This document shows positions 1,574-22,683 of a DNA stretch of 64,000 nt, one piece after another (the first letter of the stretch is position 1; the number at the start of each line of letters is the position of its first letter). Where the stretch lies: NCBI GenBank assembly GCA_947629935.1, contig CANRFQ010000001.1, positions 22,444-86,443 on the forward strand, read 5' to 3'. The position numbers and the translations under genes are program-made. The stretch is from an uncultured Bacilli bacterium. GTDB taxonomy: Bacteria > Bacillota_I > Bacilli_A > RF39 > UBA660. Below the pieces are notes generated by a model. That model was not told where the DNA came from. It was given only the letters and a program-made list of their open reading frames with translations, and did no database searches.

Positions 1574-3544
1574 TTACTTACTTCTTTGACGAATATAATT
1601 ACAAATTATCTCCGCCGTCTTTTCTTGACCAATCGAAGCATCTATACATAAATCATAATTTTCGGGATTATTCCATTTTTGATTAGAAATTATTTCATAA
1701 TAGCTAGCACGATTTTTATCAGATTTAATAATATTTTTCTTTGCTTTATCTTTCGTGTCACCATACATCTCTCTTACTTTTTCGATTCGATAATCTAAGT
1801 TAGCATAAATAAATATTCTTACTAAATTGGGATTATTTCGTAAAACATAATCCGCTGCTCTTCCAACAATAACACAAGAACCACATGAAGCAATCATATT
1901 AATGGCTTTTTCTTGGGCTTCAATCGCATACTTCACAGGCGCCGTTGTTAAATATAAGTCATGTAGTATATCTTTGCTTTGATTAATATTAGAAACAAAT
2001 TCTTTATCAAGGCCACTTTCTTTAGCTGCTAAAGAAACCATCTCTTTATAATAATAAGGAATATTTAATTTTTGAGCAACGAGCTTTCCAATCGCTTTAC
2101 CCTGACTACCATGTTCTCTGGCTATTGTAATTATTACACCGGCTTTAGAGTTTTGATAAGCTACTTCATCAGTTACTTTAGTTTCTTTAGATAAATTGTG
2201 GAAAAACATTGCTACTAGAATAATCGTTACTATTATTCCCATTATATCGGCAATCGGCGCCGCGATTAAAACGCCTTTTATTCCCATAAATTGTGGTAAT
2301 ATTATTACTAAAGGAATAAAACAAACAATATCTCTAGTAAGAGAAACTATCGTCGCTTTTAAAGGATCCCCAACTGCTTGAAAGAAAATTGAACATAACT
2401 TTATCAAGCATGTTAAAGTTACTAACATTAAGAATATTCTAAAAGTTAAAACCGCAAATTCCATATATAATTTTTGGTTAGTACCAAAAATACGAATAAT
2501 TAAATTTGGCCACAATTCAAAGATAATCGTAAATATTACCCCAATAGTTAAAGCAATAATAACTACCTTTTTAAATGTTTCTTTAACTCTATCAATATTT
2601 TTAGCCCCATAGTTATAACCTAAAATTGGTTGAGCTCCAACAATTAGACCTACGATGATATTTATAACTATTGAGAATACTTTCATAGCTATACCTATAA
2701 CAGCAATTGGAATATCTGCTCCATATTTACTTAAAGCGCCATACTTAGCTAACATAATATTGCAAATTAAAGAAATAGCTACAATACTCATTTGGGTAAT
2801 AAACGTTGAAACTCCTAATTTAATTACATTTTTAAATATTCCTAAGTTTATTTTAAAACTTTCCTTTGTTAATTTAAAAGTTTTAGTCCGAGTAAAATAT
2901 ATAATAGATATAATCAAAGATGCAATCTGACCAATAATAGTAGCATAAGCCGCCCCTTTTATGCCTAAGTTAAAGCCAAAAATAAAAATAGGATCCAAGA
3001 TAATATTTATTAAAGCTCCTATAGCAGTCGCAGCCATGGAAAATCTTGGGGAACCATCAGCCCTTATCACCGCATTCATACTATTTGCTACCATATAAAC
3101 CGGAATTGCAGCTAAAATAATAACATAATAGTCGCTAGCTAAACCTATACTTTTCGAACTAGCTCCAAATAAATAAAGTAAGTTATCTTTAAAAATAAAT
3201 CCTAAAATTAAGAAAATAATACTAATAATAAAAGTTATTAATACACTATTACCAATTGCTTTGTGAGCATTTTTGGTATCTTTTCTTCCTTGACATAAAG
3301 ATAGATAAGCGGCCGATCCATCTCCAAAAGCCCAAGCAAATGCCATTGTGATAATCGTTATAGGATATACTACACCTGTTGCAGCATTACCTAAATATCC
3401 TAAACTACTATTACCAATAAATATTTGATCTACTATATTATATAAAGAACTAATCAGTAAAGATAAAATACAAGGTATGGAAAATTTTAAAAGCAATTTA
3501 GATATTTTTTCTTCTCCTAAAAATTTATTATTTTCAGTTTCCAT
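1574..3544 (-). CDS. MATE-family multidrug/oligosaccharidyl-lipid efflux transporter fused to a C-terminal cytidylate-kinase-like (Cytidylate_kin2-type) domain
   Basis: 656 aa. The N-terminal ~455 aa are polytopic and MATE-like (12 TM segments, NorM/MatE-type). The C-terminal ~190 aa (IITIAREHGSQGKAIGKLVAQKLNIPYYYKEMV...) match the cytidylate-kinase-like family that is normally standalone. RBS AAAGGAGA. Confidence 0.8.
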   Translation of the reverse strand: METENNKFLGEEKISKLLLKFSIPCILSLLISSLYNIVDQIFIGNSSLGYLGNAATGVVYPITIITMAFAWAFGDGSAAYLSLCQGRKDTKNAHKAIGNSVLITFIISIIFLILGFIFKDNLLYLFGASSKSIGLASDYYVIILAAIPVYMVANSMNAVIRADGSPRFSMAATAIGALINIILDPIFIFGFNLGIKGAAYATIIGQIASLIISIIYFTRTKTFKLTKESFKINLGIFKNVIKLGVSTFITQMSIVAISLICNIMLAKYGALSKYGADIPIAVIGIAMKVFSIVINIIVGLIVGAQPILGYNYGAKNIDRVKETFKKVVIIALTIGVIFTIIFELWPNLIIRIFGTNQKLYMEFAVLTFRIFLMLVTLTCLIKLCSIFFQAVGDPLKATIVSLTRDIVCFIPLVIILPQFMGIKGVLIAAPIADIMGIIVTIILVAMFFHNLSKETKVTDEVAYQNSKAGVIITIAREHGSQGKAIGKLVAQKLNIPYYYKEMVSLAAKESGLDKEFVSNINQSKDILHDLYLTTAPVKYAIEAQEKAINMIASCGSCVIVGRAADYVLRNNPNLVRIFIYANLDYRIEKVREMYGDTKDKAKKNIIKSDKNRASYYEIISNQKWNNPENYDLCIDASIGQEKTAEIICNYIRQRSK

Positions 3545-3937: not shown

Positions 3938-4717
3938 TTATTTTTTTAAAACTTTAGAATAACCTATATCTAATAAATTAGTAAAATCATTAGGAATTTT
4001 TTCTCGTGCTTCTTTTATTAATTCATTAGGAATTCCATATAACGCCTCTGCCATTGAACCAACTATACAACCATTAGTATCTGTATCACCACCAAAAGAG
4101 ATAACTTTTAACAATGATTCTTCAAAGTTGTTTGAAATAAATAAGGCATATAAACAATTATCAATTGTTTTATAACAGGTTGTATTAAATCCATTAAAAT
4201 CAGAATAATTTAACTTTAAGTTTAATTCTTTTATTATTTCTTCTTTCGAAAAACCTAAACGTGCTAGAAAAATAATTAATGCAATAGTGGTGGCAGAATT
4301 TATTGCTTCTAAAGAATCGTGGGATGGAATAGTAGCCAAACGAGCATTATTAATTATATCTTTTTTGTTGTTAAACAAATAACCAACGGCAGAGATTCTC
4401 ATCATTGCCCCATTACCAATGCTTTTTCCATTTTTCTGATTCAATGCCCATTTTGTAAATCCAGGTGAAAAAATACCTTTGAAATAAGGTGAAAAATCAG
4501 GTTTATATATTAAAAAGTTTTTTGCGTATTTTTTCAAATAATACTCATAATTTTTATCATTTAAAATTGCATCCAAAATAGCTATAGTTAATATAGTATC
4601 ATCACTATAGAAACTTTTTTCATTAATCAGCTTTTTAGGATTTAATTTTGAAAAATATTTAGTTTGTTGATACTCATATATAGAACCTGCTAAATCTCCT
4701 ATGACTGCTCCCCACAT
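3938..4717 (-). CDS. ADP-ribosylglycohydrolase family protein (DraG-like)
   Basis: N-terminal GAVIGDLAGSIYEY and C-terminal GGDTDTNGCIVG motifs are typical of ADP-ribosyl hydrolases. RBS AGAGGT. Confidence 0.7.
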   Translation of the reverse strand: MWGAVIGDLAGSIYEYQQTKYFSKLNPKKLINEKSFYSDDTILTIAILDAILNDKNYEYYLKKYAKNFLIYKPDFSPYFKGIFSPGFTKWALNQKNGKSIGNGAMMRISAVGYLFNNKKDIINNARLATIPSHDSLEAINSATTIALIIFLARLGFSKEEIIKELNLKLNYSDFNGFNTTCYKTIDNCLYALFISNNFEESLLKVISFGGDTDTNGCIVGSMAEALYGIPNELIKEAREKIPNDFTNLLDIGYSKVLKK

Positions 4718-4797
4718 AGCGTTACCTCTTTTTTATTTATTGTCTTTTACAATATGCAATTGTATTTTCTAAACTATTATTTTTTTATAAAGTATTA

Positions 4798-4826
4798 TTG
4801 TAAAAAGAACAAATATTTGATATAAT
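4798..4826 (+). promoter_or_regulatory. Strong sigma-A promoter (-35 TTGTAA, 17 bp, extended -10 TGaTATAAT) driving the small peptide ORF
   Basis: Read directly from the sequence. It is near-consensus and carries the TG extension. Confidence 0.5.
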
Positions 4827-4902
4827 ATTCATGGATACATTTGAAATATCAGATGTTTTCCCTTTCAATTATCCAATGATAAGAGAAAGGTGGTGGTTAA
4901 TT

Positions 4903-4980
4903 ATGACAAAAAGAGAACTTCCTCTATTTATTATAATTCTGCTATTATTCTTTGTAGTAATCACCTTACTATTTAGATAA
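4903..4980 (+). CDS. 25-aa hydrophobic peptide (MTKRELPLFIIILLLFFVVITLLFR), candidate type I toxin-like small membrane peptide
   Basis: RBS AAGGTGGTG lies 8 nt upstream of the ATG. The peptide has a single predicted TM helix. It sits about 75 nt downstream of the strong promoter and is immediately followed by a bidirectional terminator hairpin. Confidence 0.4.
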   Translation: MTKRELPLFIIILLLFFVVITLLFR

Positions 4981-4981
4981 T

Positions 4982-5018
4982 AAAAACATCTGATTTCAAC
5001 AATCGTTGATTTCAGATG
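4982..5018 (-). terminator. Intrinsic terminator hairpin (7+5 bp stem, loop AATC) with a U-run on the minus strand; structurally bidirectional
   Basis: catctgatttcaac/gttgatttcagatg arms are followed on the minus strand by UUUUUAUUAU. Leader segment 4843-4855 (GAAATATCAGATG) can alternatively pair with the 5' arm. Confidence 0.55.
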
Positions 5019-5098
5019 CCATCCAATAAGGGATAACACCTGATTCTCGCAATCAAATGTATCCTTTTTTATTTTATGCAAGTTTCCTTGACATATTC

Positions 5099-5127
5099 AT
5101 CATAACATAAAAACGACTTTTTGACAA
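5099..5127 (-). promoter_or_regulatory. Minus-strand promoter (-35 TTGTCA, 17 bp, -10 TATGAT) oriented toward the 4982-5018 terminator; candidate antisense-RNA promoter
   Basis: Read directly from the sequence. It would generate a ~100-nt RNA convergent with the small-peptide mRNA and overlapping its 3' end. Confidence 0.35.
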
Positions 5128-5135
5128 GTCGTTTT
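5108..5135 (-). terminator. Intrinsic terminator downstream of tRNA-Met (9-bp stem aaaacgact/agtcgtttt followed by a U-run on the minus strand)
   Basis: Hairpin plus UUUUUAUGUUAUG on the minus strand, 40 nt after the tRNA 3' end. Confidence 0.55.
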
Positions 5136-5172
5136 ATATTGATACTCGAAAAGTTCGAGTTTCCTATCCATC

Positions 5173-5249
5173 TGGTAGCGGCGGGGGGATTCGAACCCTC
5201 GACCTATCGGGTATGAACCGAGTGCTCTAGCCAACTGAGCTACACCGCC
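5173..5249 (-). tRNA. tRNA-Met (anticodon CAT), 77 nt with encoded CCA
   Basis: The reverse complement GGCGGTGTAGCTCAGTTGGCTAGAGCACTCGGTTCATACCCGATAGGTCGAGGGTTCGAATCCCCCCGCCGCTACCA folds as a cloverleaf. The GCTCAGTTGG D-arm, TTCGAAT T-loop and CAT anticodon match elongator tRNA-Met of Firmicutes; Ile2(CAU) cannot be excluded. Confidence 0.85.
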
Positions 5250-5268
5250 ATAAAAAGTAAGCAATATG

Positions 5269-5297
5269 ATTATAACAAATAATTACATCTTTGACAA
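5269..5297 (-). promoter_or_regulatory. Promoter for tRNA-Met (-35 TTGTCA, 17 bp, -10 TATAAT)
   Basis: Consensus hexamers lie about 20 nt upstream of the mature tRNA 5' end. Confidence 0.5.
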
Positions 5298-5333
5298 CAA
5301 AAATTATAAAAAAAACAGGGCTTATAACCACTA

Positions 5334-5693
5334 TTAAATCCAACGAGCTATATAAATATTACGGGTCATTCCCTCTTGATATCTTTCAAAAATTTTAATA
5401 ATGTTATCAATTATAACCTTTAAAACATTTGTAACCGTACTTTTTACTCTAACTTGTAATAACTCTTTTTTCATTTCATTTCGAAAAGTATAATCATCAA
5501 TATATTTAGAAATAATATTATCAACACAAGTGGCTTTTTTAATTTCTTCAACATTATTTAAATCAATATTACAAACATACTTTTTATAAAATCCTATTAA
5601 TCTTTCACTAATATAATCACTTTCTAAAAATTCAAACTCCGTAATTTTATAATAATTAGGACAATATTTTACAACCATATTTGCACTGCTCAT
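5334..5693 (-). CDS. Hypothetical protein (119 aa)
   Basis: Clean ORF with a consensus promoter and a GGGAAGTG RBS. No recognisable motif. Confidence 0.5.
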   Translation of the reverse strand: MSSANMVVKYCPNYYKITEFEFLESDYISERLIGFYKKYVCNIDLNNVEEIKKATCVDNIISKYIDDYTFRNEMKKELLQVRVKSTVTNVLKVIIDNIIKIFERYQEGMTRNIYIARWI

Positions 5694-5726
5694 TTACTGC
5701 ACTTCCCTACTCATGTATTCTAGATA

Positions 5727-5755
5727 AATTATAGTAAAAAAAAATTGTTTTGTCA
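5727..5755 (-). promoter_or_regulatory. Consensus sigma-A promoter (-35 TTGACA, 17 bp, -10 TATAAT) for the 119-aa ORF, overlapping the rseP stop codon
   Basis: Read directly from the sequence. It is a perfect match to the consensus. Confidence 0.5.
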
Positions 5756-6805
5756 AAACAATTTTAAGATATCTTGCAAGGTTATATATATCATTAAAAG
5801 GAGTAACAATATGAACCCTACTGTATGGAATGCATTTTCTACTTTAGAATTAACAGGACTACCTTTTATTTTTTCAATTATTAGAAATAATATTCTACCT
5901 CCATCAAATGCCGGGAAAGGTAATATATTAATAAATCCTAAATTAATACTCAAAAACGCAATTAAATATATTACTTGTTGAATACCTACCGTTAAACTTT
6001 CACCGACTACTCCATAAATACCAACTGGTCCTGATAAAGAGCTAAGGCCTAATCCTCCTGTGAATAAATTAACTATTACGATAGCCATTGAATCAATAAC
6101 AGCCCCAAATTTCAAAACGGCATATTTTAAAGCTTGCACAAAACCATATTTCTTAGTAGTATCAATTTGGACTCCGAACACTTTTCGAGTATTACCTTTT
6201 TCATCTTTTTCCGTAACTGGTTTTATTTTATAATCTTTAATATCACCATTAGTTTTTTCAATTTTGAAAGTATAATAATCGTTTTTACTTTTAATATTTA
6301 ATAAAATTTGAGCTTTATCCCAAGTATTAACTTTTTTATCATTAACAGCAATTATGCGGTCGCCTTTTTCAATTCCAGCTTTTTCTATTGGATAACCTTC
6401 AGTTACTTTACCTACAACTGGTTCTAAAGAAGAACTACCCCAAATTAGAGCCGATAAAAATAATAAAACAAAGGCTAAAACAAAATTAAAAGTTACCCCC
6501 GCAACTAAAATTAAAAAACGTTGAAAACCAGTTTTATTACACATAAATTTTTCTTTAGGTATATTTTTATCATCTTCGGAAACTTCCCCTGCCATTTGGA
6601 CATATCCCCCAATAGGTAGAGCTCTTACCGAATACTGAATTCCATCTTTTTTACTAATTTTTTTAAATAAGATAGGTCCCATACCAATTGAAAACTCATA
6701 AATGTGAACCCCACATTTTTTAGCAAAAATAAAGTGACCAAATTCATGAATCATTACTAAAAGGCCTAAAATAAAAATTAAAACAATTAAAGTAACAAAC
6801 CACAT
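5753..6805 (-). CDS. rseP: Regulated intramembrane site-2 zinc metalloprotease RseP/RasP (M50 family, PDZ domain)
   Basis: HEFGHF zinc motif, a central PDZ domain and a C-terminal LDGG motif. Strong RBS AAGGAGGA. Lies downstream of cdsA as in Firmicutes. Confidence 0.9.
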   Translation of the reverse strand: MWFVTLIVLIFILGLLVMIHEFGHFIFAKKCGVHIYEFSIGMGPILFKKISKKDGIQYSVRALPIGGYVQMAGEVSEDDKNIPKEKFMCNKTGFQRFLILVAGVTFNFVLAFVLLFLSALIWGSSSLEPVVGKVTEGYPIEKAGIEKGDRIIAVNDKKVNTWDKAQILLNIKSKNDYYTFKIEKTNGDIKDYKIKPVTEKDEKGNTRKVFGVQIDTTKKYGFVQALKYAVLKFGAVIDSMAIVIVNLFTGGLGLSSLSGPVGIYGVVGESLTVGIQQVIYLIAFLSINLGFINILPFPAFDGGRILFLIIEKIKGSPVNSKVENAFHTVGFILLLLLMIYITLQDILKLF

Positions 6806-21909: not shown

Positions 21910-22683
21910 TCATTTCAAAAATAACTCATTTAAAGAACTGGCTATAATATCACTCAATTTATTTATTTCTTCTTCAATATTTAAAGAACTATACATTCTT
22001 TTATTAATATCGATTACTACAGGTACCCCTATAGATATTAATGGAATATTAAAAGTTTTAAAACTAATTTTTCTATTTGTTTTAATGGCACTGCCAGGAA
22101 TAATTCCTGTATCCGAAATTTCAATACATCTATTTAAGTTCTTGGGATTATTAGTAGCCAAAGAATCAATAACTATAATAGAGCTTGGTTTTAAAGAATT
22201 TACTAACATTTTAATTAGAGCAAAAGAACTTATTCCCGTTTTCCCAATAACTTCCGGAACAAATAAAGCTACTTTGGGAATAGTTAAAAAATCTACATAT
22301 TGATTAGTCGCTATTACTTTATTAGTCGTCTTTGGTCCTAATGAATCACATAAAATACTGGAGTTACCGAGTCCAATAATTAACGTAGTACCATAGTTAG
22401 GAATCGCCTTTTTAAAATGTCTTAAAACTTTTATTATTTCTTTTTTTATTGTTTTAGGATAGTTGTTTAAAACATTATCTTTAAAACAAATAGTAAAATA
22501 TTGCCCAACATCTCTTTTTAAATATTTTTTCTTTTCCTCATCGACTGCAAAGAAGGATGTTTTAATATCATTTTTAATGCTTTCTTCTAATTTATAACCG
22601 TTATTTTTAAATGTCGATTCTGCTAAATCTAAAAAAAGTTTATTTTTCATAATCTCACCAATATTATTTTGGCCGGAAAGCAC
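21910..22683 (-). CDS. gpr: GPR/YyaC-family spore germination protease (peptidase A25); probable start at internal ATG 22650
   Basis: LIIGLGN...LGP and ISDTGIIPGS motifs correspond to the conserved GPR segments (VGLGNWNVTPDALGP, ISDTGIHPGS). It is shorter than Bacillus GPR (C-terminal ~100 aa absent). Confidence 0.6.
   Translation of the reverse strand: MLSGQNNIGEIMKNKLFLDLAESTFKNNGYKLEESIKNDIKTSFFAVDEEKKKYLKRDVGQYFTICFKDNVLNNYPKTIKKEIIKVLRHFKKAIPNYGTTLIIGLGNSSILCDSLGPKTTNKVIATNQYVDFLTIPKVALFVPEVIGKTGISSFALIKMLVNSLKPSSIIVIDSLATNNPKNLNRCIEISDTGIIPGSAIKTNRKISFKTFNIPLISIGVPVVIDINKRMYSSLNIEEEINKLSDIIASSLNELFLK

Follow-up and report, generated by a model that had tools for sequence, protein, structure and literature searches.

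A probable chromosomal type I toxin-antitoxin-like cassette, repeated across uncultured gut Bacilli

What is the compact pair of convergent genes that adjoins a tRNA-Met gene in a 64,000-nucleotide stretch (positions 22,444 to 86,443 of contig CANRFQ010000001.1; hereafter the window) from an uncultured Bacilli bacterium of the RF39 lineage? The plus strand carries a promoter, a leader and an open reading frame (ORF) for a 25-residue hydrophobic peptide, and the minus strand carries the promoter of a predicted antisense RNA that faces the 3' untranslated region (UTR) of the peptide mRNA. We consider it probable that the pair belongs to an undescribed family of type I toxin-antitoxin-like cassettes carried on the chromosome. 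Three features of the type I class are found here: a hydrophobic ORF of <60 amino acids with its own promoter and Shine-Dalgarno (SD) sequence, a highly structured mRNA that limits translation and, from sequence alone, an antisense gene with its own promoter, its own terminator and complementarity to the mRNA. The layout fits the Gram-positive type I pattern, yet each specific family fails a defining test, and it is for this combination that the cassette is filed as a new family within type I. A literature search for 'type I toxin-antitoxin' together with 'RF39' found no paper. If the assignment is right, it adds a large, well-delimited family from uncultured low-G+C Bacilli of the gut of rabbits, goats, deer, mice and humans; to our knowledge, the genomes of such bacteria have almost no annotated small genes or small RNAs. 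More than 129 natural variants resolve the RNA architecture through covariation well enough for experiments to be designed directly, and the data suffice to build a covariance model for annotating metagenome-assembled genomes (MAGs) of gut Bacilli.

The cassette and its conserved peptide

A reading of positions 4300-5700 found every element of the original prediction, which had been made from this one sequence, in its place: the plus-strand promoter, the SD, the 25-aa ORF, a hairpin at 4987-5018, the minus-strand promoter and the tRNA-Met gene. The mRNA promoter (4798-4826, plus strand) consists of TTGTAA (4798-4803), a 17-nt spacer and the extended -10 element TGaTATAAT (4818-4826). On the same strand the SD AAAGGTGGTGG (4886-4896; AAAGGUGGUGG in the list of parts) lies 6 nt 5' of the AUG, and the ORF (4903-4980) runs from the ATG at 4903 to the TAA at 4978-4980 and encodes MTKRELPLFIIILLLFFVVITLLFR, a peptide with a charged N-terminus, one hydrophobic stretch of transmembrane length and a C-terminal basic residue. 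The predicted toxin mRNA of ~240 nt would start near G4833 and end in a T-tract at about 5075, both ends being placed from the promoter and terminator positions. On the minus strand, the antisense promoter (5099-5127) comprises TTGTCA (5127-5122), a 17-nt spacer and TGtTATGAT (to 5099), and the predicted antisense RNA of ~113 nt would extend from ~5094 to ~4978. Its terminator is the hairpin at 4987-5018, of 7+5 bp with two T.T internal mismatches (-16.2 kcal/mol), followed by a U-tail at 4986-4978; the T-tail TTTTTATTAT is present solely on the minus-strand side, and the hairpin also forms in the mRNA 3' UTR, 7 nt past the stop codon.

This hairpin had been proposed as a bidirectional terminator shared by both RNAs, a proposal that must be given up. 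The mRNA has a separate intrinsic terminator that had been overlooked (5031-5078, plus strand; -10.7 kcal/mol), made up of a hairpin at 5031-5064, in which the complement of the mRNA 5' end at 5053-5064 is followed by TTTTTTATTTTAT, and a T-tract at 5065-5078 (UUUUUUAUUUUAUG). Since the mRNA has its own terminator, each RNA ends inside the gene of the other and the two overlap by ~95 nt. The proposed overlap of the antisense RNA with the mRNA 3' end therefore exists, but it is not confined to one hairpin: the antisense RNA is perfectly complementary to ~95 nt of the 3' UTR and ends at the stop codon.

How much of this could be chance in a window with a G+C content of 28 %? The 2-kb region contains 18 promoter-like matches, not significantly more than in shuffles (13.9 +/- 4.1), and because the hexamers occur at background frequency the promoter argument from one sequence is weak. 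The 25-aa ORF is the sole SD-preceded, strongly hydrophobic ORF of 18-45 aa in the 64-kb window, the plus-strand RNA 4833-5145 (313 nt) and the minus-strand RNA 5092-4975 fold with z = -9.0 and z = -4.9, respectively, and positions 4833-4844 are complementary to 5053-5064 at 12/12 nt. Conservation in more than 129 copies elsewhere removes the chance explanation.

Relatives were found in several ways. A protein search with a 49-aa extended version of the ORF returned four metagenomic ORFs (P0001-P0004), all ending in the same 25-residue peptide and differing in their upstream parts, reading frame included. A degenerate DNA pattern consisting of the SD and the first five codons, run on contigs of GTDB species representatives, matched at least 119 contigs, and the counts over copies given here (129, 131, 132, 144, 152 and 165) come from loci among the pattern matches listed. 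With nhmmer at least 165 copies were found, up to 4 per 8 kb, including diverged paralogues outside the reach of the pattern. The ORF is found in 144 of 165 matches, as ~97 distinct peptides; it has exactly 25 codons in 130 of these 144 (range 23-38) and is of the MTKRE type in 123. Five full-length copies were missed by the ORF finder: three are intact (two begin with GTG, and in one, of a diverged subfamily, the ATG lies too far from the SD for the finder's spacing limit), a fourth is a pseudogene through a frameshift and the fifth is without a stop codon. Lack of conservation, or interruption in relatives, had been named in advance as an outcome that would tell against the peptide; instead, nearly every full copy has an intact ORF.

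The ratio of nonsynonymous to synonymous polymorphism (pN/pS), calculated over codons 6-25 with the pattern-fixed codons excluded, is 0.277 in the peptide frame, compared with 0.70 and 1.87 in the other plus-strand frames and 0.76, 0.45 and 1.66 in the minus-strand frames, which indicates that the 25-aa ORF is under purifying selection and is a real selected product. Peptides of the diverged subfamilies (27-30 aa) share the plan of a charged N-terminus and a hydrophobic helix; the N-terminus is basic or acidic, the hydrophobic stretch has ~19 residues and a C-terminal Lys is often present, as in MKKRTFIVKVLRLVAIILLLLTLLVIAIKI and MNKKDFLILSLIILIFLLVLLLFIVLI. Could the real gene instead be the 70-aa minus-strand ORF (4869-5081) or the 49-aa plus-strand ORF starting at 4831? 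Both frames are open in the window, and metagenome gene callers extended the plus-strand ORF upstream, as in P0001-P0004. However, in 74 of 131 copies a stop codon interrupts the minus-strand frame within the peptide span, the pN/pS of 0.45 of this frame is explained by wobble positions that it shares with the peptide frame, the called proteins are unrelated and in different frames upstream of MTKRE, and indels in the leader include lengths that are not multiples of 3. On stops, pN/pS and unrelated upstream frames both longer ORFs were rejected, and there is hardly any chance that either is the gene; the 70-aa ORF had already been dismissed as almost certainly spurious in the original prediction. 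The 25-, 49- and 70-aa products and two subfamily peptides had no match in Pfam or NCBIfam at E <= 10.

The promoters, unremarkable in one sequence, are held in place across copies. The plus-strand promoter TTGnnn-17-TGnTATAAT keeps its position in most of 131 copies, with a best match of at least 9/12 in 98, and the antisense promoter TTGnnn-17-TGnTATnAT stands at the same offset in nearly all of them, its -35 box being conserved although it lies in otherwise unrelated flanking DNA. At locus L001 the antisense promoter is a full consensus, TTGACA-17-TGTATAAT. The span from promoter to promoter is 264-266 nt in most copies.

RNA architecture and a proposed switch

To define the RNA structures, explicit helices were tested on an alignment of 129 copies (mean mRNA length 240 nt), with partners slid by 1-3 columns and shuffles as controls. 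In the mRNA, a state built on long-distance pairing has 94.7 % of cells paired, versus 35-44 % when slid, and 37 of 51 pairs show double-sided changes. Its outermost helix, H1, joins the 5' anchor GGAUACAUUUGA (GGATACATTTGA as DNA; 4833-4844) to 5053-5064, with 97.7 % of cells paired and double-sided changes at 7 of 11 pairs. The adjoining leader segment 4848-4866 (AUCAGAUGUUUUCCCUUUC), a mimic of the antisense RNA, pairs with 5028-5044 through H2 and H3. H2 (4848-4856 with 5036-5044) is 95.3 % paired and double-sided at 7 of 9 pairs, one of which is UA in 52 copies and CG in 40, and its G.U pairs are plus-strand-specific (116 wobble cells versus 53 unpaired); H3 (CCCUU with AAGGG) is 88.6 % paired. 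Together these helices engage the initial 32 nt of the mRNA (4833-4864) with the 3' UTR at 5028-5064. The 3'-UTR target segment as a whole (5028-5064) has three alternative partners, namely the 5' leader, the antisense RNA and, within the segment, the mRNA terminator hairpin 5031-5064, which is 84.7 % paired on the plus strand and is followed by a nearly invariant T-tract. The hairpin 4987-5018 also belongs to the mRNA fold, as H6 (97.7 % paired, 10 of 12 pairs double-sided). Complementarity of the leader to the 5' arm of this hairpin had been noted in the original prediction and proved slightly longer than first drawn: this alternative helix, H2', joins 4848-4859 to 4983-4994 over 12 perfect nt and is 94.3 % paired across copies. 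In subfamilies B and C both the 5' and 3' anchors and the leader and UTR partners have changed in step, for example GGAACAUUUA facing UGAAUGUUCC and GUUGGGUG facing CACUCAAC.

The SD, in which GG.GG is invariant in 129 of 129 copies, and the start codon are both enclosed in local structure on the plus strand. In the anti-SD hairpin (4861-4890; -10.9 kcal/mol, 91.8 % and 93.4 % of cells paired), CCUUUC (4861-4866) faces GAAAGG (4885-4890) and encloses a further hairpin at 4869-4882; the anti-SD helix itself, H4, is 91.8 % paired with few compensatory changes. The start-codon-sequestering hairpin, H8 (4899-4938; -8.3 kcal/mol), is 87.8 % paired, and one of its spacer bases changes in step with a synonymous position of the Ile12 codon (AU in 30 copies, UA in 30). 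Another helix, H5, between the SD and coding segment 4960-4967, is 88.6 % paired, yet solely through G.U pairs and one-sided changes, and we do not regard it as established. The SD of the core family is sub-optimal (AAAGGUGGUGG), that of the diverged subfamilies is GGAGG, and the anti-SD shifts from CCCUUUC to CCUCC or CUUCC. In the modeled fold the full-length mRNA looks largely inert.

The antisense RNA comprises a 5' GNRA hairpin (5094-5076), an A-rich linker, hairpin 2 (5064-5031) and the terminator (5018-4987), and pairing over the whole RNA reaches 90.1 % of cells, versus 24-42 % with slid partners. A GAAA tetraloop caps the 5' hairpin, which occurs in the variants CAAG/CUUG, GAAG/CUUC and GAGA/UCUC; the terminator stems are 97.9 % and 94.8 % paired, with compensatory changes. 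Pairing in hairpin 2 is better on the minus strand, at 90.1 %, compared with 84.7 % on the plus strand. In 71 copies position 5040 (column 284) is a C, which gives a G-C pair with the leader, a G.U pair in antisense hairpin 2 and a C.A mismatch in the mRNA terminator hairpin, an asymmetry which argues that selection acts on the long-distance pairing of the mRNA and on the antisense RNA. Variability is 1.36 bits in the H6 loop, 1.54 in the hairpin-2 loop and 1.22 in the linker, compared with 0.2-0.3 in the stems and 0.79 at synonymous sites. RNAalifold on the antisense alignment recovered hairpin 2 only, the diverged subfamilies being misaligned around the terminator. Rfam searches of the whole window with gathering thresholds, and of 4000-6000 with E <= 10, yielded no family but tRNA; next in rank was SpF43, whose 24.6 bits against a threshold of 70 were taken as chance.

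Why would the mRNA begin with a sequence resembling its own antisense RNA? The leader (4833-4866) is 78 % identical to its own antisense segment (the reverse complement of 5028-5064), compared with 58 % for shuffled sequence, and the likeness holds in the diverged subfamilies too. Being very similar to antisense hairpin 2, the leader is expected to compete with the antisense RNA for one 3'-UTR site. In the mechanism that we propose, the 25-residue single-helix peptide, the presumed toxin, would damage the membrane once made. In the free mRNA the leader CCCUU would be held by AAGGG of the 3' UTR. The antisense RNA would bind the 3' UTR, probably first at the variable loops, and would displace the leader, and the freed leader CCUUUC would then pair with the SD GAAAGG and shut translation, much like SR4 on bsrG, while the long antisense-mRNA duplex would trigger decay of the RNase III type.

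Taken together with the genomic placement of the cassettes, this could be viewed as a built-in decoy, a remote switch, copy specificity and tRNA-terminator insertion combined, a principle undescribed for type I systems; we offer this joint reading tentatively and think it rather less probable than its failure in some part. The 5' leader, as a near copy of antisense hairpin 2, may occupy the antisense target as a decoy. By evicting the leader onto the SD, the antisense RNA may let an event in the 3' UTR act ~150 nt away. Hypervariable loops on conserved stems could restrict each antisense RNA to the mRNA of its own copy in an array of paralogues. Finally, cassettes may insert or persist at tRNA terminators, at a fixed distance and with the antisense RNA co-oriented with the tRNA, and such placement, if real, would tie antitoxin supply to tRNA transcription. 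The competition between leader and antisense RNA bears on regulation at a distance, and the tRNA-terminator junction on the spread of cassettes.

Partition-function models point in the expected direction: with the 3' UTR blocked, SD accessibility is lower in 112 of 129 copies, the median falling from 0.135 to 0.044. Several considerations nevertheless weigh against both the switch and the assignment to type I. Between models of the free and the antisense-bound mRNA, the SD is unpaired at 0.15 versus 0.10 and the AUG at 0.02 in both, so that they are mostly paired throughout; the predicted effect of the proposed translational switch is thus small, and an activating processing step may be absent from the model. 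The shuffle controls of the helix test are inflated by relatedness among the copies, and much of the covariation stems from few diverged subfamilies. Because the search pattern fixed the SD and codons 1-5, the sample is biased toward conserved members. The peptide has no detectable homology to known toxin families in Pfam or NCBIfam, and the RNAs match no Rfam antitoxin family. For every member, the transcripts, the toxicity and rescue by the antisense RNA are predictions from sequence.

Copies, remnants and tRNA junctions

Nearly all carriers are MAGs titled "uncultured Bacilli bacterium", from the gut of rabbit, goat, water deer, mouse and human, and a few are labelled Erysipelotrichaceae or Tenericutes; the suspected affiliation of the carriers is RF39 or a related order. 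A few further carrier contigs (L042, L045, L048, L063, L095, L097 and L115/L120) have MAG titles of Muribaculaceae, Prevotellaceae, Methanobacteriaceae, 'Candidatus Scybalousia' or Clostridium sp.; these odd labels, several of them on short contigs, likely reflect mis-binning or mislabelling rather than a real wide host range. Locus L111 (Lapin-008__bin8) is 97.4 % identical to the window from the neighbouring ADP-ribosylglycohydrolase (ARH) gene into the cassette, and L034, L072 and L053 have a cassette at the same ARH-adjacent position with 86-89 % identity. Across the family the genomic contexts are unrelated and there is no constant partner gene; in L001 the cassette lies between prfA and prmC, and in L002 three tandem copies are followed by a tRNA. 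Two or more cassettes are present at 29 of 120 loci, mostly head-to-tail and <600 nt apart. Arrays in L101 and L047 (4 copies each), L020, L023, L091 and L100 mix the MTKRE core with the diverged MNKKDF... and MKKRTF... subfamilies, which is consistent with orthogonal paralogues sharing one genome, each with a co-varied anchor, leader and 3' UTR. No cassette was matched in the viral contigs, plasmids or phages of the collections searched.

Away from contig ends, 128 copies are full, 14 are without the toxin 5' half and 0 are without the antisense half. The 14 antisense-only partials, which have lost the toxin promoter and RBS, look like orphan-antitoxin relics, and the imbalance can be read as an indirect sign of addiction logic. 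They lie mostly within tandem arrays and include L014 5582-5962, L021 5708-6087, L031 5986-6363, L068 7148-7505 and L101 607-986, among others. In L003 (360-611) an acetyltransferase-like gene has its stop codon immediately before a copy with neither toxin promoter nor 5' anchor, for which read-through is a possible source of transcription; the contig ends inside the cassette. In the window, 4728-4759 resembles the cassette 3' end and was considered as a relic copy, and was taken instead to be the T-rich ribosome binding site (RBS) region of the ARH gene.

Might the peptide be a non-toxic small membrane protein, such as a modulator of a transporter or sensor, that is tuned by a cis-antisense RNA with no addiction or killing involved? 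What the evidence demonstrates is selection on the peptide and on both RNAs, and toxicity goes beyond that. However, multi-copy tandem arrays in unrelated contexts with no constant partner gene, the extreme sequestration of RBS and AUG, and the fact that every remnant has retained the antisense half and none the toxin half by itself (14 versus 0) speak against such a role, because arrays, sequestration and remnant bias are typical of type I toxins and unlike housekeeping small proteins. We regard this alternative as unlikely, and a type I toxin-antitoxin-like cassette as the better account of the same features.

In the window, the tRNA-Met(CAT) gene with an encoded CCA (5249-5173, minus strand) is followed by the trailer GAUGGAUA and a hairpin at 5163-5141, and then by the tRNA-Met terminator hairpin (5110-5135, minus strand; 10 bp plus a T-tail, -11.0 kcal/mol). 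The loop of the latter holds the antisense -35 box, an arrangement that would insulate the antisense promoter from tRNA read-through. A hairpin around the antisense -35 box is found in 58 of 132 copies, with a stem that covaries between copies, and is not a universal part of the cassette. There is a tRNA within 150 nt of 31 of 152 copies (~20 %), and 28 of these 31 tRNAs lie on the opposite strand downstream of the toxin, so that they precede the antisense RNA in the same orientation. In 20 copies, beside at least 10 different tRNAs, 264-281 nt separate the toxin ATG from the tRNA 3' end (270 nt in the window). The cassette junction falls directly after the stem of the tRNA trailer-terminator, whose T-tail is replaced by AAAAATAGA and a second hairpin carrying the antisense -35 box. 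This fixed junction suggests either terminator-targeted insertion or selection for tRNA-coupled transcription of the antitoxin.

Such precision, in ~20 copies, is also what might be expected if the cassette were a miniature inverted-repeat mobile element (MITE), with the 12-nt repeats at 4833-4844 and 5053-5064 as its termini and the ORF and RNA structures as by-products. Copies are indeed both dispersed and tandem, and the inverted repeats are perfect over 12 nt and change jointly in the subfamilies. Nevertheless, the repeats are internal to the conserved block, with conservation reaching outward to both promoters, the ORF has a coding signature (pN/pS 0.28), the internal helices covary with plus-strand-specific G.U pairs, and there is no match in plasmid, phage or viral collections. 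With internal repeats and a selected ORF the MITE reading was rejected, and we give it very little credence beside the type I cassette.

Loci with an adjoining tRNA comprise the window (5099-5249), L023, L034, L047, L065, L066, L072, L093, L101, L105, L106, L116, L117 and others. Different CCA-encoding tRNA genes of these MAGs share a near-identical 3' trailer, GAT(T/A)GATA..AAACTCGGAC..GTTCGAGTTTT, whether a cassette is present or not; it is seen at 5136-5172 of the window (minus strand) and in the regions downstream of tRNAs in L008, L024, L079, L100, L105 and L119. It is unusual for one trailer/terminator module to be conserved among tRNAs that are not identical.

Relation to known type I systems and neighbouring genes

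The peptide had been likened to the Ibs, Fst and TxpA toxins; a specific kinship finds no backing, since none of Pfam, NCBIfam and Rfam gave a match at a threshold as loose as E <= 10. Gram-positive type I families as a rule have an antisense RNA on the 3' side that partly overlaps the mRNA (PMC8594479), and bsrG/SR4, txpA/RatA, bsrE/SR5 and yonT/SR6 of Bacillus subtilis likewise consist of convergent RNAs overlapping at their 3' ends, with a small hydrophobic toxin. In SR4/bsrG the antitoxin binds far from the RBS, extends a helix that sequesters the SD and promotes decay, with first contact at the terminator loop (PMC3834814), and the switch proposed here would be analogous to this SD sequestration. 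Unlike the bsrG/SR4 group, the present cassettes show no Rfam, Pfam or sequence similarity, encode a shorter peptide (25 aa), are not on prophages (no phage or viral match), and would switch by displacement of an antisense-mimicking 5' leader, which is undescribed for those systems. In TxpA/BsrG, moreover, the antisense RNA extends into the 3' portion of the toxin ORF (PMC8594479), whereas here it ends at ~4978-4980 and reaches the stop codon only.

Fst/RNAII (par, Enterococcus faecalis plasmid pAD1) and SprA1/SprA1as resemble the cassette in this respect, being Gram-positive and convergent with a 3'-side antisense RNA outside the ORF (PMC8594479). In both systems the RNAs pair through complementary 5' repeats that lie outside the overlap, direct repeats in the case of Fst/RNAII, whose two RNAs also end at one bidirectional terminator; unlike Fst/RNAII, the present cassette has two distinct terminators, and its leader is of the same sense as the antisense RNA (78 % identical) and so cannot pair with it. 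The peptide has no match to the Fst toxin family in Pfam. Like the cassette, Ibs/Sib has a very short hydrophobic toxin (Ibs, 18-19 aa) and multi-copy tandem repeats, but shows no sequence match with it. Ibs/Sib is proteobacterial. Sib overlaps the whole ibs ORF (PMC8594479), whereas the antisense RNA here lies entirely 3' of the ORF.

In hok/Sok (fbi-tac) and aapA1/IsoA1 of Helicobacter pylori the full-length mRNA is closed by 5'-3' long-distance pairing, with alternative or metastable folds that sequester the SD (PMC6733600; Franch et al. 1997, as cited in PMC8594479). The predicted fold-back of the full-length mRNA with its sequestered SD is reminiscent of both, although for hok the shared principle is the fold-back only. 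These systems are Gram-negative and their antisense RNAs target the 5' region, whereas in the present cassette it is the 3' partner of the fold-back that the antisense RNA would target. The cassette has no homology to Hok or AapA, hok/Sok being characterized by a Hok_Gef domain, the mok leader ORF and the 5'-targeting Sok.

Among other genes of the window, the neighbouring ARH has no identical protein on record, and neither Pfam nor NCBIfam matches a 119-aa ORF (5334-5693, minus strand) that lies between rseP and the promoter of tRNA-Met. On the minus strand at 1574-3544, a 656-aa protein fuses a MatE efflux transporter (PF01554, residues 24-186 and beyond) to a cytidylate-kinase-like domain (PF13189, residues 471-637), and this combination of MatE with a C-terminal cytidylate-kinase-like domain is unusual.

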